Sequence record: OQ955832.1
DNA length: 57,756 bases
Reading direction: 5' to 3' (one strand)
Source of the DNA: Escherichia phage vB_EcoS_PJ16
Position 1 is the first letter of the stretch. Each line of letters starts with the position of its first letter. Under the pieces are notes generated by a model. It made no database searches, was not told the origin of the DNA, and saw only the letters and a program-made list of their open reading frames with translations. This document shows, one piece after another, positions 26,624 through 57,756 of this stretch. The position numbers were made by a program, and so were the translations under genes.

Positions 26624-27235
26624 TTAATGATAGACCTTGTGTACCTCTTGTTCCAGTTTATACGCGTCGGCGCCTTGTGGGAACGGATACGACACGAGTT
26701 TAACCACGGGGTGTGGAGTTCGTCGTTGTAGTTGTCGTAGTCGCTGTTTTAAGTCGTTTGTAATACCAACTTTAAGCAGAGTAGGACACTGTTTATCGTC
26801 AGTTAACACGTAGAGCGTTCCGTGTTCTGACGGGTTAAAACCTGTTTCAGCGCACTGGGGGCAACCTTGTTTCATTGAAGTGTGATTGTTCGGAGTCTGT
26901 TCAAACACACCGTGTTCTGAACAAATGATTTTCACAGGAGTACACCGATTAACATACTCCACCAACGAATAGTCGTAACGGTCCCCGTGAACTTCACGGG
27001 CGCGTGTAATAAACTCTTCTGTGGTTAAACGTTGTTGCTTAACTGCACATTGGGGACAACCTCTCCCGCGAACATGATTATTAGGAATCTGTTCAAACAC
27101 ACCATGTTCAGGACAGGTGATCTTCACAGGAGTACACCAATTCACATACACCACTAGCGAGTAATCGTATTTGTGCCCATGAACTTCACGGGCACGTGTG
27201 ATAAATTCTTCTGTGGTTAAACGTTTCCTACTCAT
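26624..27235 (-). CDS. T5orf172 (GIY-YIG-like) domain protein with duplicated zinc-ribbon domains
   Basis: Two tandem copies of EEFITRAREVHG-YDYS...GCPQCA; C-terminal GTLYVLTDD...KVGIT...EQEVH resembles T5orf172 domain. Confidence 0.55.
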   Translation of the reverse strand: MSRKRLTTEEFITRAREVHGHKYDYSLVVYVNWCTPVKITCPEHGVFEQIPNNHVRGRGCPQCAVKQQRLTTEEFITRAREVHGDRYDYSLVEYVNRCTPVKIICSEHGVFEQTPNNHTSMKQGCPQCAETGFNPSEHGTLYVLTDDKQCPTLLKVGITNDLKQRLRQLQRRTPHPVVKLVSYPFPQGADAYKLEQEVHKVYH

Positions 27236-37703: not shown

Positions 37704-38144
37704 TTACTCCAGTGAATAGATTGTAATTTCGCAATCAATGTTGTTCAATTTTTCATAAATCAAAGGTCTGACTACTGACCATGATAAACCACCATTTGAA
37801 CAACCTAATCGTGGTAATGAAACTGAACGTATTTTAAAGTGTCTGATGACTTTTATAAGATCGTCCAAACCATATTCAATCCATTGTAATTGTGAAGGAT
37901 TACACCAATGCTCTTTAGTTGGAAAATTAATAATTATCTGATTGTTTTCAGATGTGACAAACATTTTTCCAACTTTTACATGGTGTTGTTCACACGCTTT
38001 TCGGTACTGTTTAAAATTGTCAGGAAAGGTTCTTTTAAACGCTAAAGCAATACCTTTACCCATTACACCAACGCAATTCACCGTGTTTACTAGAGCATGT
38101 GAATTGCTTTTAAGAAGGTCCCCCGTGACTTCTATTACTGACAT
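37704..38144 (-). CDS. Macrodomain protein, TARG1/DarG-like
   Basis: GDLLxxNSHALVNTVNCVGVMGKGIALAFK and PRLGCSNGGLSW resemble TARG1-type macrodomain signature. Confidence 0.7.
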   Translation of the reverse strand: MSVIEVTGDLLKSNSHALVNTVNCVGVMGKGIALAFKRTFPDNFKQYRKACEQHHVKVGKMFVTSENNQIIINFPTKEHWCNPSQLQWIEYGLDDLIKVIRHFKIRSVSLPRLGCSNGGLSWSVVRPLIYEKLNNIDCEITIYSLE

Positions 38145-38649
38145 AACAATAACTCCTGTACGCTTGTCGTTTTATTTTCTGATAGTCGGAAACTTTTACA
38201 GATCTCGTTTTACATTCACCGATACGATATGGGTCGAAAACAAACATCACCTGTGAACGGTCATTTCCTCCTGCTGGTAACCTGGTGTCAGGATCTACAA
38301 ACGCTATACGACCTTTAAACACCCATAGTTCCGAACAATGTGTCAGTGCTTTGTGAAACCAGTCTGCAGACGTCATAGCGTTCACGAGTAATAACGAACC
38401 AGTTCCTTGATGAACAGTGGTTATTATTTTATTAACCCATGGAGACGGATCGCTGTATGGTGGATTACACCAGACGAACCCACCACCATTACTTTGAACA
38501 ATCGAATTCCAGTCTTTATTCAGACTATCAGTGATAAACAACGAACATTTAGCGTTAGAACCATCGGTACACACATCAAGAACAAGTGGGAATTCACGAG
38601 AAACGTTATCAATAAAATCCCACGGTGTTTCCCAGTTGTCTTTAGCCAT
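38110..38649 (-). CDS. DNA N6-adenine methyltransferase (phage Dam type)
   Basis: Track ORF 38110-38766 trimmed to ATG 38649 (GGAGAG RBS); WETPWDF, VLDVCTD, NPPY motifs. Confidence 0.7.
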   Translation of the reverse strand: MAKDNWETPWDFIDNVSREFPLVLDVCTDGSNAKCSLFITDSLNKDWNSIVQSNGGGFVWCNPPYSDPSPWVNKIITTVHQGTGSLLLVNAMTSADWFHKALTHCSELWVFKGRIAFVDPDTRLPAGGNDRSQVMFVFDPYRIGECKTRSVKVSDYQKIKRQAYRSYCYVSNRSHGGPS

Positions 38650-38995
38650 GTTCCGGTACGCTCTCCACGCTGTAATAAACGGGGATACCCAGACGTTCAG
38701 CTTCTGCAATTTCCGCAATAGTCCCGGACGAACGACGATAATCAGGAAGCACCAGAACAGCGTCACAGCGGCGCATAATTTCTAACGTGCCTGACAGGTA
38801 GTATTCAGGTTGTATATTGCGTAAACCTCCGTCAAAGTCCCACAATTCGGTGTTCTTGTGAGGGATAACAGGGAACCACCCCGGACGTTGTAAAGCAAGT
38901 CGTTTACCTGCCTGTTCAGCGCGTGACACGTTACGGGATGTTTTAAGCGCACAGTCAGCACGATAAGGCCCGGCAATGTAACAGAGTTTAATCAT
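38642..38995 (-). CDS. Nucleoside 2-deoxyribosyltransferase-like protein
   Basis: Track ORF 38642-39085 trimmed to ATG 38995; IAGPY start and DAVLVLPDYRRSSGTIAEIAEAERLGIPV resemble the fold signature. Confidence 0.5.
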   Translation of the reverse strand: MIKLCYIAGPYRADCALKTSRNVSRAEQAGKRLALQRPGWFPVIPHKNTELWDFDGGLRNIQPEYYLSGTLEIMRRCDAVLVLPDYRRSSGTIAEIAEAERLGIPVYYSVESVPEHG

Positions 38996-41724: not shown

Positions 41725-42588
41725 TCAGTAACCGTTACCGTTGAGAAAATTAGGGGCCGGGGTGGTCATTACCATATAACCGTTAGCGATCAGTTGTTCA
41801 TCGTTCCAACCTTGCGCAATAAACTGTTCGTAAGTTGCACCACCTGCTTTTTCAGTCATTACCTTCACAGGCGCTGCTACAGGTGCTGCCGCTGGTGTAG
41901 GCGCTGCTACAGGTGCTGCCGCTGGTATAGGCGCTGCTACAGGTGCTGCCGCTGGTGTAGGCGCTGCTACAGGTGCTGCCGCTGGTGTTACGCCGATCGG
42001 ACGTGCACCTTCAGGCATTGCAGGTGCAGCACCGAACACAGAGGCCGGAGCCGGACCGGAAATGATTTCTTCACCTGCATAAAGCAATTGCGCCATTTCC
42101 ATATTGATATACACACCAGCCTGATTACCTGTACGACCGTTTGCAACAGATGACCCGCTGATACGGTAGTAATACCCTTTTTTCGCCAGATTTTTATCAA
42201 TAACTGGCTGGTACGCTGCGTTATAAACAGGACACGCGTCAATAGCCACGTTGCGTGAGAAACCAATAACCCAGTGACCAGCATAACCCGTTTTACTCGC
42301 ATGTTTCGGATCGTCACCGTTAATAATTTTCCATGCGAAAGTTGGTTGTTGTGGTTCGCCGTTCACATAGTGTGAGTTAGCCGCTCGCATGATCGCCTGG
42401 AATACCGTACCCAGTTCACCTTGTTCTTCCCACCAGTTCGCCGCTGTTTTAGGAAACGCCAGACCAACCCACCAGTTATGTTTTTCAGGTGCTAACGGTT
42501 TATTTTCGTGGTCATGAGTGTTGATGTCGAAAAAAGAACCGCCAACCAGACGACCAACCGGAGTTACAAAAGATTCTTTCTGTGCCAT
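41725..42588 (-). CDS. ssDNA-binding-like protein (DUF2815-like, putative) with Pro/Ala repeat linker
   Basis: N-terminal VTPVGRLVGGSFF pattern; four PTPAAAPVAA repeats; sits between nuclease and polymerase. Confidence 0.4.
   Translation of the reverse strand: MAQKESFVTPVGRLVGGSFFDINTHDHENKPLAPEKHNWWVGLAFPKTAANWWEEQGELGTVFQAIMRAANSHYVNGEPQQPTFAWKIINGDDPKHASKTGYAGHWVIGFSRNVAIDACPVYNAAYQPVIDKNLAKKGYYYRISGSSVANGRTGNQAGVYINMEMAQLLYAGEEIISGPAPASVFGAAPAMPEGARPIGVTPAAAPVAAPTPAAAPVAAPIPAAAPVAAPTPAAAPVAAPVKVMTEKAGGATYEQFIAQGWNDEQLIANGYMVMTTPAPNFLNGNGY
41871..41990 (-). repeat. 30-bp tandem repeat x4 (in-frame, Pro/Ala-rich)
   Basis: gcgctgctacaggtgctgccgctggtgtag repeated with 1-2 substitutions. Confidence 0.85.
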
Positions 42589-42603: not shown

Positions 42604-43749
42604 TTAAAGTGGACGTGCGCCAGTCGGCATCGTCACGGGTTTATTAAAAACAGATTCTGCCAGTGTGCTGTGACCTTTACGCGGGTCACTGTCAGGTACT
42701 AAAACTGGCTGACCTTCTGGTTTTGTAGTACACATGTCAACAAGTGCCGGGGGCAGTGATTTTTCCAGTGTTGACAACGGTTTTAATTTACGTTCGTACA
42801 ATGTTTCAGGGTTTACACCAAACATGGGTGCAGCACCGATCAGTTTTCCTTCGTCCGTAAGCTGACGTCGGGTTTGCTTTGTTGCGAGTTTAAAACCCGG
42901 TAAAGCCTTACCCATGCGAACAAAATGTAACCCCTGAGTATGTAACGCTGTTTTTGCTTCAGAAGAACGCGTATACAGTTCTTCAAGAAGTGCCAGACGA
43001 CGCGCTACTTCTTCTGGCGTAAGTGATGCTGGTGCATCAAGAACAGTAGCCAATTCTAAAACCCTCTCATACATCGCCGGACACATACCACGCGCCGGAC
43101 AGTAATGACAATGACTACCAACATTTAACGGTGCGTCTGGTTTATGTGCTTCGTTAAACCCGTGTTTAAATCGTTCAACCCAGTCCATCAATGTCACCCG
43201 GTTAAACTCCCATCGTCTTACAGGTCCGAGTGGGTGATAAGCCCGTGGCTGAACGATTGTGAACACAACACGCTTAACAGTATCAATACAACGTTGATCC
43301 AGTGCGTAATAGATCCCCTGTGAGTTATCAACTGCTTCAACTGCAACATGACCGTATTTATAATCCCATACGTAAAGCGTATCAGTATTAAAGTCATACC
43401 AGCGATAATCACAGGTTCCGTACTGACCGGGTAACAACCAGTCAATGTGAATGCGAACTTCTGAAAACAGCGGATCGAGTTTCGCACCAACTGAAAGAAC
43501 ATCTGCTATAAAGTCATCCGCGTAAATGTGCATGTCTTCAGTAACCTGAACACCGTTAGGAGCAAGACACGGCATTAATGGCGGTTTACCTTTAATCTTC
43601 TGTTCTAACACCCAGTGCCCGGCTGTACCTTCTTCAGCACTGGGTGACGATGGTTCTACATAGTCAATCCGCTGTGACAGTTGAACGCTACCCGGACAAG
43701 CTAACCAACGTTTTGATCCACTGGCACTAAAGGTAGCGTGACTTGTCAT
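42604..43749 (-). CDS. PD-(D/E)XK nuclease, DUF2800 (Cas4-like) family
   Basis: N-terminus HATFSASGSKRWLACPGS and C-terminal Cys cluster CHYCPARGMC. Confidence 0.65.
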   Translation of the reverse strand: MTSHATFSASGSKRWLACPGSVQLSQRIDYVEPSSPSAEEGTAGHWVLEQKIKGKPPLMPCLAPNGVQVTEDMHIYADDFIADVLSVGAKLDPLFSEVRIHIDWLLPGQYGTCDYRWYDFNTDTLYVWDYKYGHVAVEAVDNSQGIYYALDQRCIDTVKRVVFTIVQPRAYHPLGPVRRWEFNRVTLMDWVERFKHGFNEAHKPDAPLNVGSHCHYCPARGMCPAMYERVLELATVLDAPASLTPEEVARRLALLEELYTRSSEAKTALHTQGLHFVRMGKALPGFKLATKQTRRQLTDEGKLIGAAPMFGVNPETLYERKLKPLSTLEKSLPPALVDMCTTKPEGQPVLVPDSDPRKGHSTLAESVFNKPVTMPTGARPL

Positions 43750-48163: not shown

Positions 48164-50518
48164 ATGAAAGGGTTACTGAACCGTAAACAGTGGGTCATGT
48201 GGCGGCTTGAGACAGTCGCCGATCGTCCAAAACCAACAAAAGTACCATATAGCCCGGTACACGGTTATAAAGCCAGTACCACTAACCCTAACGACTGGTC
48301 TGACTATCACACCGCGTTAGGTATGGCGCAAATGTACGGTATGTCCGGCGTTGGTTTTGTATTCACAGAAAATGACCCTTATTTCTTTATCGATGTTGAT
48401 AACTGTCTGGTAGATCAGGCAACAGCTACGTGGTCACCTCTGGCGCATGAATTCGTAAACCGTTTCCCAAATGCTTACACTGAAGTAAGTCAGTCAGGAA
48501 CAGGTTTACATATCATCTGTGCTTATACCAGCATGCCGGAAGGTTTTAACAGTCTGAACGACCAGAAAACCGGGTTGGAAATGTACTGGCGTGATCGTTT
48601 CGTCGCGATGACGCTCACGGGGAATGGTGATGTTGATATTGATTATACCCAGGGCATTCATGATTCTATTGCCCGGTATGGTCGTATCCGTTCAGACCGT
48701 TCCGCACGCTGGACAACAGCACCCTGTGATGACTGGTCAGGTCCGACAGACGACGATGAACTGATTAAAATGGCGTTAAATTCGTCCAGTGCTGCTTCAG
48801 TATTTGGCAATAAAGCGTCATTTGCGGATCTGTGGAATGCAAACGTTGAACGCCTGTCTGTGTCATATCCCAGCGACCAGGGAAAAGACTACAATGCATC
48901 TGCCGCTGATGCTGCCCTGTGTTCACACCTTGCATTCTGGACTGGGAAAGATTGCGAACGCATTGAACGGTTGTTTAACCGTTCCGGGCTGGTTCGTGGT
49001 AAATGGACAGATCGTCAGGATTACCGTGAAAACACAATTCTGGGCGCTGTGGAACGTTGTGATACTGTGTATCGTAGTCAACCGACACTGACACCAGAAC
49101 TGATGAAAGCAGTCACACCAGCGCCTACCATCGTTCCTAACGGTGGAACACCTGCGTACATGAGTGTGAAACCCGGTGAAGGTGCATATGGTTCAAACCA
49201 CACAGTTAACGCATCCACTTTCGTTAATAACTATTATCCGAACAACACATTGATTTTCGTCCAGCAACAGCCGTACCGGTTTAACGGTCGTGTATGGGAA
49301 CGTGTGAGTGAAGATGAACTGAAACATCAGATATCTATGGCAATGCTCGCCAGCGAACCAAAAGCTGACGTGATTAATGGTACGTACAAGGTATTGTCGT
49401 ATTTATTCACACGGGCTGATCGTGAGCTTGGAACATGGCCCGGCGTTGATGTGTCACACTACATTGTATGTCAGAATGGGATACTGGATGTACACACGGG
49501 TAAATGTGATGCACACAACCCGGATTTCTTTACAACCAGTATTTTACCGTATAGCTACGATCCGTTTGCCCGTGCACCAGCGTTTGAACAGTTTCTTAAT
49601 ACAACTCTGGAAGGTGATCAGGAACGTATCGCACTGTTGCAGGAATGGCTGGGTTACATGCTTGTCAACTCGTATGACTATCAGAAAGCGATGCTGTTGA
49701 TTGGTGCACCACGTTCCGGTAAAGGTACGATTGGTCGCATCATTCAGGCACTGGTAGGTGATGAAGCGTATGCAGGGATCACACTAGAGGGTTTAGCCAG
49801 TGATGCGGTACTTGAAACTGTGCTGGATAAATCTGTGCTGTTTATTGGTGATGCTCACAGTGTGTCCGGGCCTGATCGCAACCGAATTCTGGACCGTTTC
49901 AAATCTATTACAGGTTGTGATGCGATTCCGGTTAATCGTAAGTATAAAGGTGCATGGAACGGTCGTTTACCTGGACGTATGACACTGGCTGCTAACAACA
50001 TACCGGCATTTGCTGATGATTCAGGTGCAATGGCTAACCGTTTACTGATCCTACCATTCAACATTTCGTTCCTGGGTCGTGAAGATACCACTCTGGAAGC
50101 ACGACTGATGAAAGAACTACCTGGGATCTGTAACTGGGCGATTGAAGGTTTACAACGGTTACGTGCAAACGGACGGTTTACTGAACCAAAAGCAAGTCTG
50201 GAAGAACGTCAGGAAATTATGGACCAACAATCACCACTTAGAAGTTTTATCAGAGATTGTTGCGAATTGGTATCTGATGGTGAGGTGCACACTGAAGAAC
50301 TCTATGGTCGTTATCGTCTCTGGAAAACACAGGAAGGTGGTCCAGCAATGACTAAAACTGCATTTAGTCGGGCGTTTAAATCCACCCTTCGTGGTAAAGT
50401 GAAAAAAGACGTTGTTAATATAAATAACGTTCGACTAAACGGTTTCAGGGGTATTCGTCTTCTCCCTTTTCAGTCAACAGCTAATATAGTGCCTTTCCCA
50501 CCTGCGAGTAATGGTTAG
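48164..50518 (+). CDS. Primase-polymerase / P4-D5-type helicase
   Basis: 784 aa; N-terminal prim-pol-like region (FIDVD), C-terminal Walker A GAPRSGKGT. Confidence 0.75.
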   Translation: MKGLLNRKQWVMWRLETVADRPKPTKVPYSPVHGYKASTTNPNDWSDYHTALGMAQMYGMSGVGFVFTENDPYFFIDVDNCLVDQATATWSPLAHEFVNRFPNAYTEVSQSGTGLHIICAYTSMPEGFNSLNDQKTGLEMYWRDRFVAMTLTGNGDVDIDYTQGIHDSIARYGRIRSDRSARWTTAPCDDWSGPTDDDELIKMALNSSSAASVFGNKASFADLWNANVERLSVSYPSDQGKDYNASAADAALCSHLAFWTGKDCERIERLFNRSGLVRGKWTDRQDYRENTILGAVERCDTVYRSQPTLTPELMKAVTPAPTIVPNGGTPAYMSVKPGEGAYGSNHTVNASTFVNNYYPNNTLIFVQQQPYRFNGRVWERVSEDELKHQISMAMLASEPKADVINGTYKVLSYLFTRADRELGTWPGVDVSHYIVCQNGILDVHTGKCDAHNPDFFTTSILPYSYDPFARAPAFEQFLNTTLEGDQERIALLQEWLGYMLVNSYDYQKAMLLIGAPRSGKGTIGRIIQALVGDEAYAGITLEGLASDAVLETVLDKSVLFIGDAHSVSGPDRNRILDRFKSITGCDAIPVNRKYKGAWNGRLPGRMTLAANNIPAFADDSGAMANRLLILPFNISFLGREDTTLEARLMKELPGICNWAIEGLQRLRANGRFTEPKASLEERQEIMDQQSPLRSFIRDCCELVSDGEVHTEELYGRYRLWKTQEGGPAMTKTAFSRAFKSTLRGKVKKDVVNINNVRLNGFRGIRLLPFQSTANIVPFPPASNG

Positions 50519-50529
50519 TCGTTGCACAA

Positions 50530-50577
50530 GGACGTGTAAAATAATTCTTGACGAATTACAGATATGTGCGCTATAGT
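50530..50577 (+). promoter_or_regulatory. sigma70-type promoter with UP element (conserved family)
   Basis: TAAAATAATTCTTGACGAATTACA; -35 50548-50553, -10 TATAGT 50572-50577. Confidence 0.55.
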
Positions 50578-50608
50578 CTGTACATCAAGTGAACAAGGAG
50601 TGATTGTT

Positions 50609-50821
50609 ATGAAACCACGCTACCGATTAATGAGACTTTCACAGTGTCCTAACGGAACACGGTTTTATTTTTATCGTCTGAAGCAACTATTACCTTTCAC
50701 GTTAATTGCTAACAGCTTCAAGAAACACGAAAGTATTTATCACGAGGGTCATGATTTTAATATAACCGCGCGAAAATACAGAACGTCTATTTATAAACTT
50801 GTGTGGGCTAAGGTGAACTAA
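50609..50821 (+). CDS. Hypothetical protein (70 aa)
   Basis: Track ORF 50564-50821 trimmed to ATG 50609 (AAGGAG RBS), downstream of predicted TSS. Confidence 0.4.
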   Translation: MKPRYRLMRLSQCPNGTRFYFYRLKQLLPFTLIANSFKKHESIYHEGHDFNITARKYRTSIYKLVWAKVN

Positions 50822-50822
50822 A

Positions 50823-51020
50823 ATGAAAAACATATTTGACCGTTTAATTACTGCTATTATTTTCCTTGTATCCATAACACTCGCTTCTTGTATTGTCGGA
50901 CTAATGACCCGTGGTAATCATGCGGAAACACCGTGGTGGTTTCTGGCGGGTCTTGGATTATTAGCGGCTGCTGCATCAATTGGCGCGTGTATGTGGGGAG
51001 TGAAAAACGATCATGACTGA
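50823..51020 (+). CDS. Small membrane protein (65 aa)
   Basis: Two hydrophobic helices. Confidence 0.45.
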   Translation: MKNIFDRLITAIIFLVSITLASCIVGLMTRGNHAETPWWFLAGLGLLAAAASIGACMWGVKNDHD

Positions 51021-51228
51021 GTTCGGTGCTGTAATCAAAAAAGAAGACCGTTATGCACATATTGATACCCGGATTACCTGGGTTGATATCAGTGAAGCTA
51101 CTCTGTTCAGTTCAACTTACATGGCTGGTGTTGCACTTAAAGCACTTCGTGATCAAGGTTTCAATTGCAGAAAAGTAACAATCGCGCCTGTTAAAATCAC
51201 ACGAATTGTCGAGGAGACAGAAGGATGA
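51013..51228 (+). CDS. Hypothetical protein (71 aa)
   Basis: Track ORF. Confidence 0.4.
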   Translation: MTEFGAVIKKEDRYAHIDTRITWVDISEATLFSSTYMAGVALKALRDQGFNCRKVTIAPVKITRIVEETEG

Positions 51229-51905
51229 AAGTCGTCTGGTCGTTATTCGATGGTTCCGGGATTATGGGTTTACCGTGGGCTAAGGCTGGCTATCAGGTTT
51301 ATTGCTTTAATGCTGATTCCGGTAATCACGGGGAATATTTTATTAAAGCTGATCACCCCAATCTTCATTACGTTAATCAATGGATTGATCCACAGTTTGC
51401 AATTAAGCAGGAAATACTGGGAACACCTTTACCGTCAATTATTTTTGGTTTTCCGGATTGCACCCTGTTTGCTCAAAGCGGTTCGCAACATAACCGGGAT
51501 GACGCTGAACTACAGTATGCACTGGCAAACGCAAAACTGATCCGGGAACTCGGAGAACGTTATAACGTACCCTGGATGGTGGAAAACCCTGTCGGTGCTT
51601 TATCGCGTCCTGAAATGATGGGGACACCTGACGCTTATTTTCATCCGTGGGAATATGGCGGTTATATGACAACAGATGATAAACCTTTTCACCCTAAAAT
51701 GCCGATGTTTGACGGATACACGAAGAAAACATGTCTGTGGTTCGGTAACGGTTTCAGAATGCCTGAAAAACGTCCCGGACCGATTAATATTGGTTTCTTC
51801 TGGGGCTGGAAATATCTGGGTGGTAAATCTGAAACAACTAAACAGTTACGTTCATTAACCCCGCGTGGCTTTGCTCGCGCTGTATTTGAGGCTAATAAAC
51901 AATGA
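51225..51905 (+). CDS. C5-cytosine methyltransferase-like protein (short, atypical)
   Basis: Motif I-like LFDGSG, motif IV-like GFPDC, motif VI-like ENPVG; only 226 aa, no obvious target-recognition domain. Confidence 0.5.
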   Translation: MKVVWSLFDGSGIMGLPWAKAGYQVYCFNADSGNHGEYFIKADHPNLHYVNQWIDPQFAIKQEILGTPLPSIIFGFPDCTLFAQSGSQHNRDDAELQYALANAKLIRELGERYNVPWMVENPVGALSRPEMMGTPDAYFHPWEYGGYMTTDDKPFHPKMPMFDGYTKKTCLWFGNGFRMPEKRPGPINIGFFWGWKYLGGKSETTKQLRSLTPRGFARAVFEANKQ

Positions 51906-52297
51906 TAATAGTCGTTACAGGCGGTCGTGACTTCAACGACAGAACAGCGGTATTTTCAGCATTAGGGTTACTTCACAAACAATTCCCGGTTACCGAACTG
52001 ATTGAAGGCGGTGCATCAGGTGTTGATAACCTGTGTAAGCAATGGGCGCAATTACACGGTATTCCTGTACGTAGTTGCCCGGCAGCATGGGACGATCTGA
52101 CTGTACCAGGTGCGGTTGTAAAACAGGGTAAGCATGGGCCTTATAACGCTGTTGCAGGTCATCAACGTAATCAGGCAATGTTAGAGGGTGAACCACGCCC
52201 TACATACGGTGTTGTGTTCCCCGGTGGGCGTGGTACTGCCGACATGCATCGTCGTATGTTGAAAGCTGGTTTAACTGTGTGGGTTCCATATCCTTAA
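51902..52297 (+). CDS. SLOG/LOG-like Rossmann-fold protein (DUF2493-like)
   Basis: VVTGGRDF, GGASGVD and PGGRGTADM motifs. Confidence 0.5.
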   Translation: MIIVVTGGRDFNDRTAVFSALGLLHKQFPVTELIEGGASGVDNLCKQWAQLHGIPVRSCPAAWDDLTVPGAVVKQGKHGPYNAVAGHQRNQAMLEGEPRPTYGVVFPGGRGTADMHRRMLKAGLTVWVPYP

Positions 52298-52334
52298 AAT
52301 AATTCTTGACAGATTACCAACCTCCCCCGATAAT
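52290..52334 (+). promoter_or_regulatory. sigma70-type promoter with UP element (conserved family)
   Basis: TAAAATAATTCTTGACAGATTACC; -35 52306-52311, 17-bp spacer, -10 GATAAT 52329-52334. Confidence 0.6.
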
Positions 52335-52357
52335 TAGCCTCAGTTAACACACATGAG
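52335..52357 (+). promoter_or_regulatory. 5' leader hairpin overlapping SD (inverted version of hairpin at 15257)
   Basis: Stem gcctcag/gaggc; right arm contains GAGG SD of the 52369 gene. Confidence 0.45.
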
Positions 52358-52368
52358 GCTAAACACAA

Positions 52369-53136
52369 ATGGCTAACATTAACTCCCTTCGCAAGCTGTC
52401 TGATACCGATAAAACCAACGTAAAACGTGGTAATGCGTATCGTATTGATCCGCGTATTATCAAGATTCGTCCAGGACATAACCCACGCGGTGTGTTTACC
52501 GACAACTACTGGGAAACTGAAGCAGCACTGGCACACATTGAAAACTTTCGTCAGGCTTATACTAACGGCGATTTCGTTCCACCCATCGTGGTACAGGTTG
52601 TTGACGGTGTTCCGTATGTCCAGGATGGTGAGCATCGTTTACGTGGTGTATTGGCAGCTATTGACGCCGGGACGCCGATTCTGACAGTAGACGTTGTTGA
52701 ATCGTCCGGTGACGAACTACAACAGACCCTGACACTGTTAAAAGGTAATGAAGGTAAACCGTGGTCCCCTGTTGAACGTGCTGTTATTTACGGTCGTTTC
52801 CGTTCATATGGCATGAGTGTTGAGCAGATCGCTACACAGGTCGGTAAAACCGTTCAGCACGTTTACGAACAACTGAATATTCTTGATATGCCGCTGGAAC
52901 TTAAACGTCGTATTCAGAACGGCGAAATCAGCGCGTCAGCAGCCATTCGCCAGTTTAAAGCAGGTGATAAAGAACCAGTAGTAACGCGTCGTCCGCCTGC
53001 TAAACTGGTACGGTCTGCAGTGGAAGCAATCCGTGGTGAATGGTCTGTAACCCGTTCGGAAGGTGGTAAAGTCCTGGTTGAACTTACCGCTGAACAGTTT
53101 GAAGCGTTAAAAGCACTGAAGGAGCACCAGTTATGA
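52369..53136 (+). CDS. ParB-like nuclease domain protein
   Basis: KIRPGHNPRG and DGEHRLRGVLAA resemble ParB/sulfiredoxin N-domain motifs. Confidence 0.65.
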   Translation: MANINSLRKLSDTDKTNVKRGNAYRIDPRIIKIRPGHNPRGVFTDNYWETEAALAHIENFRQAYTNGDFVPPIVVQVVDGVPYVQDGEHRLRGVLAAIDAGTPILTVDVVESSGDELQQTLTLLKGNEGKPWSPVERAVIYGRFRSYGMSVEQIATQVGKTVQHVYEQLNILDMPLELKRRIQNGEISASAAIRQFKAGDKEPVVTRRPPAKLVRSAVEAIRGEWSVTRSEGGKVLVELTAEQFEALKALKEHQL

Positions 53137-53312
53137 AAAACCGTAAAGCAAAGATTCTGTTAGTTCGTAGAAACGCTCCTGGCGTCTGGCAGTGGGTGAG
53201 ACTCAGCAACCGACGGATGGGGTTGATGAAATATTACGGGATGATGGATTGCAGTTTTTGCAAAAAAACCCAGCGCGGCGCAAAACCGCTGGAAAAACCA
53301 CTTTCGCATTAA
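53133..53312 (+). CDS. Hypothetical small basic protein, tandem paralog 1 (59 aa)
   Basis: Not in track; ATGA-coupled to ParB-like gene; NRKAKILLVRR...WVRLSNRRM shared with next gene. Confidence 0.35.
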   Translation: MKNRKAKILLVRRNAPGVWQWVRLSNRRMGLMKYYGMMDCSFCKKTQRGAKPLEKPLSH

Positions 53313-53323
53313 AGGAGAGTGAT

Positions 53324-53521
53324 ATGGCAACCAACAATCGTAAAGCCAAGATGCTTATTTCCCGTGTATACAGCCGTTGCTATCCCAGCCAGTGGTTGAG
53401 AGTTAGCAATCGCCGTATGGTGTTGTACTTATATTCTGGAATTGCCAGAGATGGAATCAAAGATAAGCGTAGCGCGGCGCAAAACCGCTGGAAAAACCAC
53501 TTGCGTACTAAAGGAGAGTGA
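53324..53521 (+). CDS. Hypothetical small basic protein, tandem paralog 2 (65 aa)
   Basis: Track ORF 53192-53521 trimmed to ATG 53324 after AGGAGAG RBS. Confidence 0.4.
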   Translation: MATNNRKAKMLISRVYSRCYPSQWLRVSNRRMVLYLYSGIARDGIKDKRSAAQNRWKNHLRTKGE

Positions 53522-53522
53522 T

Positions 53523-53786
53523 ATGGCAACTTTAACAAAAAAAGAACGGGCATGGTTGAATGAATTACAGGACGTTCTTGATCGCTGCCCATCACCGAAA
53601 AAAATTGGTTTTTACACCATTGGCGATAAAAGCATTTACCTGTATGACCTACGCCGCATGGATGAAATCATGGAGGCTCTTGATAATCGTTCGTCGGTGG
53701 ATTGGTGTGTTGCTGTCCATGATATGAATGCCGGATTTGATGAAAAGATTTTGTTCCCCTCATCAGTTGAAAGCACTGCGGGTTAA
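53523..53786 (+). CDS. Hypothetical protein (87 aa)
   Basis: Track ORF 53442-53786 trimmed to ATG 53523 after repeated RBS element. Confidence 0.45.
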   Translation: MATLTKKERAWLNELQDVLDRCPSPKKIGFYTIGDKSIYLYDLRRMDEIMEALDNRSSVDWCVAVHDMNAGFDEKILFPSSVESTAG

Positions 53787-53796
53787 GGAGTAACAC

Positions 53797-54465
53797 ATGA
53801 CCACTATTACCAAAGAGCGACTGCTGACAATCAGGCAATGGCGCGAAACATACGGACCTGGTAGCAATGTTGTACTGCCAGCAGAAGAAGCGGAAGAACT
53901 GGCACGAATTGCTCTGGCATCGCTGGAAGCAGAACCAGTTGCTTATATTTTCAAACATCCGGCCGGGAAATTATTCTGGGCTTTAACGGATGAAAGCAAT
54001 AAAGAGCAACCGGACGTTATTCCTGTTTATGCTGACTCACCTGCGCCGGTTGTGCCGGATGAAATAGACGTAAACGATGTACCAAGGGCGGTGACATATT
54101 TCAAGACACACAGAGATTGTTACGCAGATGGCTGGAACGCCTGCCGCGCCGCCATGCTTCAGTCCGGAAACTTTCGGGAAAACAAGAATTCGTCAACCAA
54201 TAATTTTCGGGAAATCGCGGAAACGTCAACCAACTATCCGGTAATTCCTAGTGAGGTGTTGTCCGCAATCCTGAAGGTTGCCAAGATTCGTGCCGATTTC
54301 GATGATTTTGACGGTGACAGGCGAGGTATCGGTGATTGTCTGGATGAGGCTGAGCAAGAGCTTATCGTTACCATTAACAAATATGCCAGTCAGTTAGCAG
54401 CAGAACCGATAGCGACTAATGAAAATCGTTGGGTTGCCAAACTAACCGGGAGTAAAAAGAAATGA
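53797..54465 (+). CDS. Hypothetical protein (222 aa)
   Basis: Track ORF. Confidence 0.5.
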   Translation: MTTITKERLLTIRQWRETYGPGSNVVLPAEEAEELARIALASLEAEPVAYIFKHPAGKLFWALTDESNKEQPDVIPVYADSPAPVVPDEIDVNDVPRAVTYFKTHRDCYADGWNACRAAMLQSGNFRENKNSSTNNFREIAETSTNYPVIPSEVLSAILKVAKIRADFDDFDGDRRGIGDCLDEAEQELIVTINKYASQLAAEPIATNENRWVAKLTGSKKK

Positions 54466-54632
54466 CTAAAATCTACATTACAAAATATGCATTAACAACT
54501 GGTGTTTTCAGTGTAGATGCTAAAATAAAATCAGATGGTACAAGTGCAACTTTCTACGACAAAAGAAACATACGACAGTTTGTTTATGGTAAAGATTTTT
54601 GGTTGACACCGGAAGAGGCTTTTATTGATTGA
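54462..54632 (+). CDS. Hypothetical small protein (56 aa)
   Basis: Not in track; ATGA-coupled. Confidence 0.35.
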   Translation: MTKIYITKYALTTGVFSVDAKIKSDGTSATFYDKRNIRQFVYGKDFWLTPEEAFID

Positions 54633-54721
54633 GAGCGTCGTCGAATAAACAAATTAAAATCTCTGGAGAAACAGAAACAAAAAATCGAAAGTTTAAACTT
54701 TCAAATTATTAAGGAACATTT

Positions 54722-54946
54722 ATGACTATCCGACTGATGAATCCAACCGTTGCCCGTGATATTAAACCGGGTGACAAGATTGAAGTATTTAACGAATGGT
54801 ACTGGGTACGTTATATCAATTACCACGGGGCAACACTTACGCTTCGCTTACAACCGGAAGATGAACCGCTATCACCATTTTTCGAAAACGACCGCGTTGT
54901 GGTGACAGTACCAGAAGATCTAATGATTGATGTCGAGGTGCGTTAA
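54722..54946 (+). CDS. Hypothetical protein (74 aa)
   Basis: Track ORF with AAGGA RBS. Confidence 0.45.
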   Translation: MTIRLMNPTVARDIKPGDKIEVFNEWYWVRYINYHGATLTLRLQPEDEPLSPFFENDRVVVTVPEDLMIDVEVR

Positions 54947-55270
54947 ATGACTGTATATGAAATGGAAGGTTTTCTTCGTGGTAAATGTGTTCCGGGTGAT
55001 CTGAAAGTTAACGAAACAAACGCTGAATATCTTGTCCGTAAGTTCGGTGAACTTGAAAATAAATGTGCGGCGCTGGCTGAGGAGAATGTTCGACTTAAGT
55101 CAGGTATAGCTGGCCTGATACATCTCGGTATTCGATACGCAGATGTTGATGTAATGAAAATTGCTGGAGATGCACAGCTTTCTACCCCATGCACTGATGA
55201 CATCATAAACAGCATTATCCAAAAAGAAACCAGTGATAAACGTGCACAAGCACAAAATGTTCCCTCGTAA
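54947..55270 (+). CDS. Hypothetical protein (107 aa)
   Basis: Track ORF. Confidence 0.45.
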   Translation: MTVYEMEGFLRGKCVPGDLKVNETNAEYLVRKFGELENKCAALAEENVRLKSGIAGLIHLGIRYADVDVMKIAGDAQLSTPCTDDIINSIIQKETSDKRAQAQNVPS

Positions 55271-55499
55271 CGGTTTGAAGTGGTCCGCACGAGATCTGGC
55301 GTTATTAAAAATTAATGCAGGAAAGATCAGTGCGGATGAAATAGCGTATTACCTTCGCCGGGACGTTGAAGCGGTACACATTAAAGCGTCACGTCTCGGT
55401 ATATCACTGGTAACCAATAAATGTAAACGTGGTCATGCGCGAGTTTACAAAAAAGGTAGATGGCGCTGTCCTGAGTGTAGAAAATTAAAAGGGTATTAA
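55257..55499 (+). CDS. Hypothetical zinc-finger protein
   Basis: Track ORF 55233-55499 trimmed to ATG; C-terminal CKRGH...CPEC. Confidence 0.4.
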   Translation: MFPRNGLKWSARDLALLKINAGKISADEIAYYLRRDVEAVHIKASRLGISLVTNKCKRGHARVYKKGRWRCPECRKLKGY

Positions 55500-55501
55500 A
55501 T

Positions 55502-56071
55502 ATGACACCTGAACAATTCGCAACAGCAGCACACGGTGATCAACTTCGTAAGTATACCAACGACCCATATGTGAACCACTGCCGGAACGTTGCTGAACTG
55601 GTTAAACGCTATGGTGGTACGCCGGATATGGTTACCGCTGCCTGGCTGCATGACGTCGTTGAAGATACGCCCGTGACCGTGGGTGATGTGTGTTCGCAGT
55701 TCGGTGAGACTGTGGCACGTTATGTTGATCAGCTTACTGATGTGAGTCGTCCACACCACGGCAACCGTGTTAAGCGTAAAGCACGGGACATCGACCATTT
55801 ATCACGGGCTGAACCTGTGGTGAAAACTATAAAACTGTGTGATCTGCTGGATAACACATCTTCAATTGACCGACACGATCCGAAGTTTGCTGTAACATAC
55901 CTGGCTGAAAAACAACTCATGCTTGCTCACCTGTCAGACGCCAGTAATCAGGAGTTATACGCGCTTGTTGAGCGTGAATTGTTTAAAGCCAAATACAAAC
56001 TAACGAACGTCCAGTTAACCGCGTTTGACAAACACTACGACGCACTGGTTAAAGCGATGGGGGAGTTGTGA
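55502..56071 (+). CDS. HD-domain phosphohydrolase, SpoT/RelA-hydrolase-like
   Basis: AAHGDQLRK, H-x3-VA and AAWLHDVVEDT match the (p)ppGpp-hydrolase HD signature. Confidence 0.65.
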   Translation: MTPEQFATAAHGDQLRKYTNDPYVNHCRNVAELVKRYGGTPDMVTAAWLHDVVEDTPVTVGDVCSQFGETVARYVDQLTDVSRPHHGNRVKRKARDIDHLSRAEPVVKTIKLCDLLDNTSSIDRHDPKFAVTYLAEKQLMLAHLSDASNQELYALVERELFKAKYKLTNVQLTAFDKHYDALVKAMGEL

Positions 56072-56295
56072 TTATGATTGCAGATCAACTACTGTGTAAA
56101 CTACGCGCGGACCTGATTAATAAAAAGTTTTGTCGTGATATAAACAAACCACTGGCATTTGTAAAAGTGCTCAACGTCTACAGAGCAGGTCGTGGTTTTA
56201 AGGTCATGTTCAGATACGGTGATGACGGTCCTGTCGTATATTGTGGTTACACCAATTTTTTGAAACGTTACCCGGAGGAACTAACACATGAATAA
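56068..56295 (+). CDS. Hypothetical protein (75 aa)
   Basis: Track ORF. Confidence 0.45.
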   Translation: MIMIADQLLCKLRADLINKKFCRDINKPLAFVKVLNVYRAGRGFKVMFRYGDDGPVVYCGYTNFLKRYPEELTHE

Positions 56296-56542
56296 AGCAT
56301 CACCTGTAGAAATACGCAAATGTCTTGAAATGGCAAACAGTCTTGCACATGCAGGGATTAGATTTGTCCCTGTACCGGTAACCAGTGATGATGAATTTAA
56401 TTCGCTGGTTTCTCATTCTTACGGGATACTGGACAAAATAGCAGACGATTGTGATACGACTAACCGCCAGTTCGAAAGCCTCAGCAACCACAAACATCAC
56501 TTCATCAACGGCACTTGCGTAGAGTGCCTGAAAAGTGAATAA
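56288..56542 (+). CDS. Hypothetical protein (84 aa)
   Basis: Track ORF; terminator follows. Confidence 0.45.
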   Translation: MNKASPVEIRKCLEMANSLAHAGIRFVPVPVTSDDEFNSLVSHSYGILDKIADDCDTTNRQFESLSNHKHHFINGTCVECLKSE

Positions 56543-56565
56543 CTACCCGTTCATATTAATTATCA

Positions 56566-56590
56566 GTGCGCTCTATGTGGCGCACGTTTT
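56566..56590 (+). terminator. Rho-independent terminator
   Basis: Stem gtgcgc/gcgcac then GTTTT. Confidence 0.55.
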
Positions 56591-56640
56591 CTATGAGGTG
56601 TACCGATGACTATAAGACGTGTTGTGTGTGCAGAAACTGA

Positions 56641-56672
56641 CTAAAAAGCGGGGCTAATTACCCCGCTATCTT
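56641..56672. terminator. Bidirectional terminator hairpin
   Basis: Stem agcgggg/ccccgct; T-run on minus strand side after the 56672-57475 gene. Confidence 0.6.
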
Positions 56673-57475
56673 TATTGACCCATCATATCTTTATACATCA
56701 TCAAAACAACATCATCCGGCATATTATCTACATCGCAATGCGGGTTATGTGATAACGCATACAGTCTGATTTTCTCCTTCAAATCGCTGACATCGACTAC
56801 AGGTGCTTCCACTCGTGTTACAGGTGCTTCCACTCGTGATACAGATGCTTCCACTCGTGCTACAGGTGGTTCCACTCGTGCTACAGGTGGTTCCACTCGT
56901 GCTACAGGTGGTTCACAAACCATCACGTTAAACGGTGTTCCGGTGCCTTCGTATTTTTCAAGCAAATCGACCATTACGTTTACACATTCCGGGATCCAGC
57001 CCCGGCGCAAACCATTCTGAATCCAACTGTCAGTAATTGTGTGTTCGTTTAAATTCCTGCGTAACACGTATCTTGCACATTCAAAATTACCGCACATCGC
57101 CTCAAACCGTGTCCACACGTCGTGACCGTGAACAGCTTCCAGGATCTGTGAATCAACGTATCTGACACGTTGCCAGTAGTTATTAGCAAAACGCCTGTGT
57201 GGTAATTTCTGACGCAGTTCGGTAACCGGTATTGTGTGTTTAAGAACAATGTTTTCGTCAGAATGTTGTACTGTCAAGGGTGACAGTGTGAAGTCAGTAA
57301 TCTCTTCAAGAATAATACTGATCGTTTCATATTTAGGATGAAACCTACCGCTTAACCATTGATTGTAACGACCAACAGTTACCTTAACACCTCGACGATT
57401 AAGGTATTCAACAGCATTTTGTACCCCGCCTTTTAAATCTATCAATTCGTCTAAAAGGTTCTTTTTCATTATCAC
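56672..57475 (-). CDS. Hypothetical protein with VEPPVAR heptad tandem repeats (267 aa)
   Basis: Strong RBS AGGAGGGG; 21-bp in-frame repeats near C-terminus. Confidence 0.55.
   Translation of the reverse strand: MIMKKNLLDELIDLKGGVQNAVEYLNRRGVKVTVGRYNQWLSGRFHPKYETISIILEEITDFTLSPLTVQHSDENIVLKHTIPVTELRQKLPHRRFANNYWQRVRYVDSQILEAVHGHDVWTRFEAMCGNFECARYVLRRNLNEHTITDSWIQNGLRRGWIPECVNVMVDLLEKYEGTGTPFNVMVCEPPVARVEPPVARVEPPVARVEASVSRVEAPVTRVEAPVVDVSDLKEKIRLYALSHNPHCDVDNMPDDVVLMMYKDMMGQ
56799..56916 (-). repeat. 21-bp tandem repeat, about 5.5 copies (in-frame)
   Basis: acaggtgcttccactcgtgtt and variants, read directly. Confidence 0.85.
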
Positions 57476-57756
57476 CCCTCCTTATTCAACCACGGGTAAA
57501 GCATAACTCGTGTTGGCAGCTAGTGCAAGATGTGCTTTATATGTTAGTGTATTTACACCTAATGCATGTTGTGCTTTAGCAGCTAGTGCAAGATGCACGT
57601 TGTGTATTAGCTGTTAGTGCACGTTGTGTATCTATGTTGGTACAGCTAATGCACGTTGTGAATTATATAGTGCATATAGTGCATTAAAGTTATACTTAAC
57701 ATAGATTTCGTCATGTTTATTTTTTGATCAACCCCTCATTATCTTTTTATAGATAA
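57476..57756. repeat. AT-rich non-coding repeat region (left half of hub A)
   Basis: Direct repeats GCACGTTGTG x3 plus variants, agctagtgcaagatg x2; 57700-57756 homologous to 17690-17760. Confidence 0.65.
57498..57530 (-). promoter_or_regulatory. Putative sigma70 promoter for 56672-57475 gene
   Basis: Minus strand TTGCAC-17 bp-TATGCT followed by leader ACCCGTGGTT similar to hub B promoters. Confidence 0.4.

Follow-up and report, generated by a model that had tools for sequence, protein, structure and literature searches.

A stand-alone RelA/SpoT-type hydrolase gene in the accessory region of Escherichia phage vB_EcoS_PJ16

The hydrolase gene and its surroundings

Near the right end of the 57,756-nt sequence of Escherichia phage vB_EcoS_PJ16 (PJ16; the whole stretch is called the window here) lies a gene whose predicted product is a single-domain hydrolase of the RelA/SpoT type. 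Its open reading frame (ORF) runs from ATG to stop where the first-pass annotation had placed it, and codes, as claimed there, for 189 amino acids (aa) (Table 1). An AAAGGG run upstream resembles a Shine-Dalgarno sequence and may act in translation of the gene. The preceding ORF ends with a TAA stop at 55497-55499, just 5' of the hydrolase ATG, and the GTG start of the next ORF (56068) shares bases with the hydrolase stop (GTGA). With this short gap upstream and the overlap downstream, the hydrolase and both neighbouring ORFs are tightly packed and co-oriented. Two antisense ORFs overlie the gene; nothing speaks for either, and we take them to be its shadows.

In type the source phage is a virulent, 9NA/Sasha-like siphophage of E. 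coli and Salmonella; the genera Nonanavirus and Sashavirus are intermingled in this group. The window is nearly colinear with the genome of Escherichia phage AVIO78A. Judged by position and by the AVIO78A annotation, it reaches from the gene for the small terminase to a right end without coding sequence, and looks like a complete or nearly complete genome. Over the hydrolase region the closest relatives are 536P12, Bas82 (KarinMuster), AVIO78A, PDP46 and BDX09P1. Small rightward genes form a block between the primase gene and a leftward gene that contains repeats, and the hydrolase gene lies towards the end of this block.

Table 1. Features of the PJ16 window discussed in the text
Feature	Position	Strand	Remarks
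Hydrolase gene	55502..56071	+	ATG-to-stop ORF, 189 aa (stop within coordinates); single HD_4 domain
Shine-Dalgarno-like AAAGGG	55487..55493	+	8 nt 5' of the ATG; read from the sequence
Antisense ORF	55496..55798	-	overlies the hydrolase gene
Antisense ORF	55729..55920	-	overlies the hydrolase gene
Upstream ORF	55233..55499	+	
74-aa ORF	54722..54946	+	0.5 kb upstream of the hydrolase
Accessory block	53518..56230	+	about 2.7 kb, about nine small co-oriented ORFs including the hydrolase; no counterpart in Salmonella phage Sasha
Sigma-70-like promoter match	52306..52334	+	TTGACA-17-GATAAT, 11/12; consensus scan; precedes the ParB-like gene; best upstream match
Terminator-like hairpin	56566-56585	+	about 0.5 kb 3' of the hydrolase; closes the rightward unit
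Terminator-like hairpin	56647-56667	both	about 0.5 kb 3' of the hydrolase; closes the rightward unit
Small ORF matching Sasha gp78	53133..53312		
Second small ORF matching Sasha gp78	within 53333..53521		
SLOG-like gene	51902..52297	+	131 aa; Pfam YAcAr (YspA/cpYpsA-related SLOG family), 1e-19
Methyltransferase-like ORF	51225..51905	+	226 aa
Primase gene	48164..50518		
Repeat-containing gene	56672..57475	-	267-aa ORF; no family match
Tandem repeats	56797..56914		5.6 copies of a 21-bp unit, 93% matches
Small terminase gene	207..959		
Gene with T5orf172/MUG113 and DUF723 zinc-finger matches	26624..27235	-	203 aa
Dam-type N6-adenine methyltransferase gene	38110..38766	-	Pfam Dam, 2.6e-31
DUF2800/PD-(D/E)XK nuclease gene	42604..43749	-	
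Enc34-like single-stranded DNA-binding protein gene	41725..42588		adjoins the nuclease gene

Family, active site and predicted fold

The protein matches the Pfam family HD_4 (PF13328, RelA/SpoT-type HD) over residues 5-135, with 57.7 bits against a cut-off of 27.2 (E 1.5e-15). The general HD model PF01966 scores 22.9 bits, and there is no other Pfam match. The NCBIfam model TIGR00691 (spoT_relA) is matched at E 5e-21, with the alignment limited to model positions 4-123 of 687; the protein thus has the hydrolase part but lacks the synthetase, TGS and ACT parts. PHROGs assigns the protein to phrog_990 (2e-37), and PADLOC gives no match for it. In the PDB, the best 22 of the 25 sequence matches are without exception small alarmone hydrolases (SAHs), MESH1 or proteins of the Rel/RelA/SpoT family; among them are several SAHs, MESH1 of human and fly, Listeria Lmo0812, and hydrolase domains from Rel, RelA and SpoT. 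HD families outside the RelA/SpoT homologues (RSH) match weakly: Phn-HD at E 0.042, and cAMP phosphodiesterase at E 0.96 with no stretch passing alone. The first-pass annotation had called the protein a SpoT-like HD hydrolase and SAH candidate lacking a synthetase domain, and had asked for a search against RelA/SpoT HD families. That search was positive, with HD_4 and spoT_relA as the best families; no synthetase domain appeared, and the nearest solved relatives are SAHs, MESH1 and Rel/SpoT hydrolase domains rather than an unrelated HD class. The identification is further supported by 51% identity to a tested enzyme, PaSpo of phage SSU5.

A search of a large protein database at E<=1e-3 returned 1873 homologues, most of which have one domain and about 167 aa. 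When 37 of these, with 44-88% identity to the query, were aligned, H11, R16, K17, H26, H50, D51, E54, D114 and N118 proved invariant in all 37, and D55 near-invariant. Two of the motifs quoted in the first-pass annotation, HGDQLRK (residues 11-17) and AAWLHDVVEDT (46-56), are present as given; a third, written there as H..VA, is really H26-x3-V30-A31, a trivial mis-spacing. The conserved residues align with the MESH1 elements h..q.rk, py.nh, lhd.vedt and kl.d.l.n, and also with the SSU5 and PVP-SE1 proteins. We take their roles from the literature (for the HD Asp), from PDB mutant entries and from the corresponding residues of MESH1 and RelSeq. In the Cellulomonas marina antitoxin ATfaRel, antitoxin function was lost when the Asp equivalent to D51 was replaced (D54A; Jimmy et al., 2020, PMC7229694). 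These comparisons confirm the prediction of a single-domain RelA/SpoT-type hydrolase with a complete set of metal-binding and catalytic residues. The C-terminal helix, at about residues 169-188, is lineage-specific.

An AlphaFold2 model built on the homologue alignment is all-helical, with a mean predicted local distance difference test score (pLDDT) of 96.4 and a predicted template modelling (TM) score of 0.91. When the predicted model was compared with the PDB using Foldseek, human MESH1 ranked first (TM 0.76-0.81, root-mean-square deviation 2.0-2.2 Å over 168-169 columns); for the metazoan MESH1 structures taken together the values are TM 0.75-0.81 and 2.0-2.7 Å over 168-173 columns. SAH, MESH1, Aph1, Rel and SpoT structures make up 49 of the 50 matches listed, and the last place goes to RelA bound to the ribosome. 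A comparison with predicted viral structures gave as top matches proteins labelled HD/PDEase or '(p)ppGpp hydrolase', some of them from Erwinia and Klebsiella phages. The protein is thus predicted to adopt an all-alpha HD fold that can be superposed on the solved hydrolase domains of SAH and Rel proteins.

It is very improbable that the protein is a generic HD phosphohydrolase of another class (dNTPase, HD-GYP, cyclic-nucleotide phosphodiesterase or polyphosphatase) or an inactive remnant. The public labels of orthologues, 'polyphosphate hydrolase' and 'metal-dependent phosphohydrolase', and the weak match to the general HD model would fit a generic enzyme. However, HD_4 scores well above that model, the significant solved relatives are almost all of the RSH family, and the RSH-specific ED pair and R-K motif are conserved. 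The first of these labels probably arose by truncation of 'guanosine polyphosphate pyrophosphohydrolase', the label carried by SSU5_099. The ratio of nonsynonymous to synonymous substitution (dN/dS) is 0.04-0.09 (Nei-Gojobori method; ten pairs among five orthologues; dS up to 1.6), indicating strong purifying selection, which excludes an inactive remnant. The HD_4 match, the number of homologues and these ratios together put the identification well outside chance.

Within the SAHs, the PJ16 hydrolase appears to be PaSpo-like in the classification of Atkinson 2011 and Jimmy 2020, an assignment made by proxy, through similarity to reference proteins. It is 51% identical and 65% similar to SSU5_099, which is PaSpo, over 145 aa (E 2e-44), compared with 36% identity over 73 aa to the PVP-SE1 protein and 22-28% to MESH1, the Pseudomonas aeruginosa SAH, RelH and Lmo0812. 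The SSU5 and PJ16 proteins share HD_4, PHROG 990 and identical catalytic residues, and both are orphans of enterobacterial phages with no adjacent synthetase annotated. Their C-terminal 40-60 residues are unrelated. The two phages also differ: SSU5, whose genome measures 103 kb and includes ParA, RepA and repressor-like genes, is presumably a temperate phage-plasmid, whereas PJ16 is a 58-kb siphophage from a group described as lytic. The data on neutralisation of toxicity are those for PaSpo.

The other phage SAH that has been tested, PbcSpo of PVP-SE1, is more distant. In the two-thirds of the PVP-SE1 genome that was compared (1-50000 and 95001-145000), gene 220 is the sole match to the family profile and is therefore probably PbcSpo. 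Its low identity to the PJ16 hydrolase (E 6e-6) and its profile score of 39.5 bits, compared with 190 bits for SSU5_099, place it in a different subfamily. The PbcSpo group, here the PVP-SE1 SAH and ATfaRel, nevertheless shares with the PJ16 hydrolase the domain, the core motifs (H, HD, ED, D, N) and the proposed use by the phage. Four bacterial structures, the P. aeruginosa SAH (6YVC), Corynebacterium glutamicum RelH (7QOC/7QOD), a Leptospira SAH (7QOE) and Listeria Lmo0812 (4YF1), have the same fold and catalytic motifs and are likewise orphans with no cognate toxin; these are 22-26% identical to the PJ16 protein, and their genes are chromosomal housekeeping or interbacterial-defence genes, not phage genes.

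MESH1 (PDB 3NR1, 5VXA, 9CHY) is the best structural match and is likewise a single-domain protein of similar size, but it is eukaryotic, only 27-28% identical, and reported to act on NADPH in cells. It also neutralises toxic small alarmone synthetases (toxSAS; Jimmy et al., 2020, PMC7229694) and dephosphorylates pyrophosphorylated tRNA (pp-tRNA; Kurata et al.). The likeness raises the question whether the phage enzyme is a MESH1-like phosphatase acting on NADPH (at the 2'-phosphate) or on 3'-phosphoadenosine 5'-phosphosulfate (PAPS), and thereby alters the redox or sulfur metabolism of the host. The best structural matches are indeed human MESH1 with NADPH and with PAPS (TM 0.75-0.81), and XccSAH, a Mesh1-L enzyme that like the PJ16 hydrolase is an orphan with no cognate toxin, hydrolyses NADPH besides alarmones. 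On the other hand, the identity to MESH1 is well below that to PaSpo, whose phenotype is toxSAS neutralisation, and the characterised bacterial SAHs that we covered hydrolyse alarmones (XccSAH both these and NADPH). We regard a role as cofactor phosphatase as improbable.

No synthetase partner was found for the hydrolase, which is an orphan. Pfam scans of 20 other ORFs of the window, including all the larger unassigned ones, detected no RelA_SpoT synthetase domain, and a family-profile scan of all six-frame ORFs in the window returned this HD_4 ORF only. The annotations of AVIO78A, Bas82 and Sasha list no synthetase. The same holds for homologues elsewhere: no synthetase lies beside seven homologues in the contexts examined, of which five or more belong to phages or prophages. 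In five of these contexts the homologues are 50-57% identical to the query. One is located in a prophage region of Burkholderia pseudomallei, adjoining a phage lysozyme gene. A second, on a phage contig (L008 5469-6531), directly follows a MazG-like PRA-PH gene and has thymidylate synthase, dCMP deaminase and DNA polymerase genes nearby. A third is on a 91-kb phage-like contig (L014 6001-9360); the second gene downstream of it is of the DksA/TraR zinc-finger type, and a PfkB-GGDEF gene comes next. The contexts of these last two homologues, 53-55% identical to the PJ16 protein, hint at modules for manipulating nucleotide signals. The remaining two have chromosomal surroundings made up of small unknown genes.

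These contexts bear on the idea that the hydrolase is an antitoxin (type IV, ATfaRel-like) or an immunity protein (Aph1-like) against a toxic synthetase of the same phage. There are SAHs that act as the antitoxins of FaRel (Jimmy et al., 2020, PMC7229694), the prophage protein Aph1 gives protection from the MuF-fused (p)ppApp synthetase encoded next to it, and the PDP46 orthologue is labelled 'RelA/SpoT family (p)ppGpp synthetase'. That label, however, is mistaken: the gene carrying it is the hydrolase. No synthetase domain occurs within the hydrolase or in the ORFs and annotations named above, and the neighbours are shuffled among orthologous loci with no partner constantly adjacent. ATfaRel, in contrast, is the antitoxin of a three-gene toxin-antitoxin locus. 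Aph1 (7SMG, from a Bacteroides prophage) resembles the PJ16 protein in being a phage-borne HD hydrolase for 3'-pyrophosphorylated purine nucleotides, as is predicted here, but the likeness is marginal (E 0.0076; TM 0.49; 19% identity), and Aph1 adjoins its own toxin and does not hydrolyse (p)ppGpp. We consider an antitoxin or immunity function extremely unlikely and rejected the antitoxin reading, as the ORF scans revealed no toxSAS partner. An Aph1-like, (p)ppApp-specific hydrolase was likewise rejected because of the weak similarity.

Distribution among relatives and proposed role

The hydrolase lies inside the accessory block. When positions 50300-57756 were compared with Sasha by blastn, the matches ended at 53517 and restarted at 56230, with flanks of 87-97% nucleotide identity; between ParB and gp81, the Sasha annotation shows only three small genes, gp78-gp80. 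To delimit the group we required at least 87% primase protein identity, which gave 19 distinct phages in the phage collection. Presence of the hydrolase was scored at 80% identity or more, and absence as no match at E<=1e-20. Seven of the 19 carry it (536P12, Bas82, PDP46, AVIO78A, BDX09P1, FSL SP-062 and SP069), and no match was found in Sasha, Sergei, Solent, 9NA or eight Klebsiella phages. The primases of the carriers and of Sasha, Sergei and Solent alike are 99.2-99.6% identical to that of PJ16, so the hydrolase was gained or lost recently. One orthologue, Bas82_0088 of phage KarinMuster in the BASEL collection, is identical at 187 of 189 residues.

The neighbours of the gene change from phage to phage. 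Two metagenomic relatives (88% and 85% protein identity) have the hydrolase at a like position among other neighbours. AVIO78A and Bas82 have the ORF that directly precedes the hydrolase in PJ16, but not next to it; at the L017 and L018 loci this ORF was not found in the vicinity of the hydrolase. The sole compared neighbour that accompanies the hydrolase at all five orthologous loci is the 74-aa ORF, which lies directly upstream in L017 and directly downstream in L018; it has no informative Pfam match, and no match in the right-end region fetched from Sasha. Patchy presence, changing neighbours and a GC content of 48.7%, compared with 43.6% for the genome, mark the hydrolase gene as accessory and the region as mosaic. 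Two adjacent small plus-strand ORFs at the block's left edge (Table 1) are a local tandem duplication: each matches Sasha's one gp78 region, with 87-92% nucleotide identity.

The sigma-70-like promoter match upstream of the ParB-like gene is the probable start of the rightward unit that holds the hydrolase, and a promoter is annotated at the equivalent place in AVIO78A. Terminator-like sites number 13, compared with 7.0 +/- 2.5 in shuffled sequences, and a terminator is annotated in AVIO78A and Sasha at the place equivalent to the two hairpins that close the unit. The placement from promoter to terminator suggests, but does not show, transcription by the host RNA polymerase.

SAHs have been sorted into subfamilies, and many SAHs were noted in phages and prophages (Jimmy et al., 2020, PMC7229694). 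The stand-alone SAHs of Salmonella phages PVP-SE1 (PbcSpo) and SSU5 (PaSpo) both neutralised CapRel, PhRel, PhRel2, FaRel and FaRel2, and it was proposed that incoming phages bypass alarmone-mediated defence via such hydrolases (Jimmy et al., 2020, PMC7229694). Four of these five toxSAS toxins add pyrophosphate to tRNA at its 3' CCA end, and MESH1 and ATfaRel restore aminoacylation (Kurata et al.). Co-expression of SSU5 PaSpo is a routine means of detoxifying CapRelSJ46 and FaRel2, and according to the authors the enzyme removes the tRNA modification (Kurata et al. 2021/2024; Zhang et al. 2022). Phage SAHs have thus been catalogued, two were tested by co-expression in 2020, and the idea that they blunt the stringent response or alarmone-based defence is published (Jimmy et al., 2020, PMC7229694). 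The first-pass identification of the hydrolase is correct, yet less novel than it implied.

We suggest that the PJ16 protein is probably an active stand-alone 3'-pyrophosphohydrolase, a PaSpo-like SAH that would cancel growth-arrest signals to the benefit of a virulent phage. The enzyme would be metal-dependent and remove pyrophosphate esterified to the ribose 3'-OH of its substrates. Judging by the family and by the 51%-identical tested relative, these may comprise (p)ppGpp, (pp)pApp and pp-tRNA. The first-pass annotation had thought of the stringent response and of nucleotide-alarmone signalling in defence; beyond this idea, likely substrates are tRNA pyrophosphorylated at the 3' CCA by CapRel- and FaRel2-type toxins, which is now regarded as an important substrate of this family, and (pp)pApp. 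Expressed from a unit presumably transcribed from a host-type promoter, the hydrolase could cancel the growth arrest caused by the RelA/SpoT stringent response, or the arrest imposed by toxSAS such as the enterobacterial CapRel-type fused toxin-antitoxin defence proteins. CapRel-type systems occur in enterobacteria and their prophages. The anti-defence and anti-stringent-response roles are mutually compatible, and the sequence data do not separate them.

The same enzyme might have a purely metabolic role, in which it lowers host (p)ppGpp to keep rRNA and tRNA synthesis, translation GTPases, DnaG and purine synthesis active during infection and takes no part against defence toxins. Most characterised SAHs hydrolyse (p)ppGpp, and reports tying phage infection to alarmone accumulation are cited by Jimmy et al. 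(2020, PMC7229694). The annotated relative AVIO78A has no recognisable RNA polymerase gene, so the phage would depend on the host for transcription, and the DksA/TraR-type and MazG-like PRA-PH genes beside homologues point to general management of alarmones and nucleotides. Against this, PaSpo neutralises CapRel, PhRel2 and FaRel2, toxins that modify tRNA and make no alarmone, indicating that PaSpo-type activity is not limited to ppGpp. The patchy distribution, in seven of 19 phages, is also more like host-specific counter-defence than a core metabolic need. We consider an exclusively metabolic role unlikely.

A broad counter-defence function, in which the hydrolase erases CapRel-type 3'-CCA tRNA pyrophosphorylation and FaRel-type (pp)pApp during infection, is put forward here tentatively. 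All five group members that were isolated on E. coli or are listed as unannotated Sashavirus carry the gene; the near-identical Salmonella phages Sasha, Sergei and Solent are without it. In the literature on counter-defence by phage SAHs we found hypotheses and co-expression data only, and no demonstration during real infection. If the proposal is true, a virulent coliphage could escape abortive infection without mutating its capsid or other trigger proteins, and the patchy distribution of the gene would reflect host-specific toxSAS pressure. An enzymatic 'eraser' would join the known counter-defence repertoire and help explain escape from tRNA-targeting abortive infection. The Bas82 orthologue, together with plating on O-antigen-restored E. 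coli K-12, makes the role in infection accessible to genetics.

Several points weigh against the proposal that the hydrolase cancels growth-arrest signals. The substrate range of the PJ16 enzyme is extrapolated from a protein 51% identical to it. For PaSpo itself, the evidence is neutralisation of toxicity; dephosphorylation of tRNA in vitro was shown for ATfaRel and MESH1 (Kurata et al.). The existence of close relatives without the gene (Sasha, Sergei, Solent) indicates that it is dispensable in some hosts. The promoter-like sites of the region are, in total, not above the number in shuffled sequences, so the timing of hydrolase expression is a guess. Finally, the BASEL paper rates Bas82 as unremarkable against its defence panel, which we did not check for toxSAS members, and the description of Bas82 in that paper does not mention the hydrolase gene.

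Other genes and public annotations

Recognition of the hydrolase corrects names in public records that are vague or wrong, namely 'polyphosphate hydrolase', 'metal-dependent phosphohydrolase' and '(p)ppGpp synthetase'. In AVIO78A (55398-56197) the product names appear to be shifted by one gene: 'polyphosphate hydrolase' stands on a 234-nt upstream coding sequence, and the hydrolase coding sequence is called 'hypothetical protein'. In PDP46 the hydrolase (54434-55000) is named '(p)ppGpp synthetase'. In BDX09P1 (55836-56404) it matches in two pieces over 569 nt rather than 567, suggestive of a frameshift or of an error in sequencing.

Neither tRNA nor tmRNA genes were found by ARAGORN anywhere in the window, and a phage tRNA set as another way round tRNA-targeting toxins was rejected on this ground.

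Upstream of the accessory block, the gene with the YAcAr match is conserved in the corresponding region of the metagenomic relative L017, and at the equivalent position Sasha has gp75 ('GTP-binding domain', 396 nt). Domains of the SLOG type are predicted to bind nucleotide ligands. Between the SLOG-like and ParB-like genes, AVIO78A has an extra gene, AVIO78A_090 (L003 1760-2182), whose annotation note cites similarity to the NADAR family. An HNH endonuclease gene occupies this spot in Sasha, and PJ16 has neither; the differing content in the three phages indicates rapid turnover of accessory genes. The N-terminal part of the ORF at 51225 weakly resembles C5 cytosine methyltransferases of type II (PADLOC, E about 1e-3), and LFDGSG and FPDC motifs can be seen by eye; the ORF has no Pfam match and is short for a complete C5 methyltransferase. 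Its Sasha counterpart is labelled 'DNA methyltransferase'.

In the leftward gene at the right end, the 21-bp repeats encode (E/A)PPVARV-like heptads. Several overlapping blastn matches suggest that the copy number differs in Sasha, where a 'direct tandem repeat region' is annotated within the equivalent gene. Farther to the left, the gene with T5orf172/MUG113 and DUF723 matches lies on the other strand, flanked by the tail-tube gene and the tail genes that follow it, and looks like a gene of the homing-endonuclease type; AVIO78A has only a 168-nt ORF at this place. The AVIO78A ORFs that correspond to the Dam-type methyltransferase and DUF2800/PD-(D/E)XK nuclease genes are labelled hypothetical.

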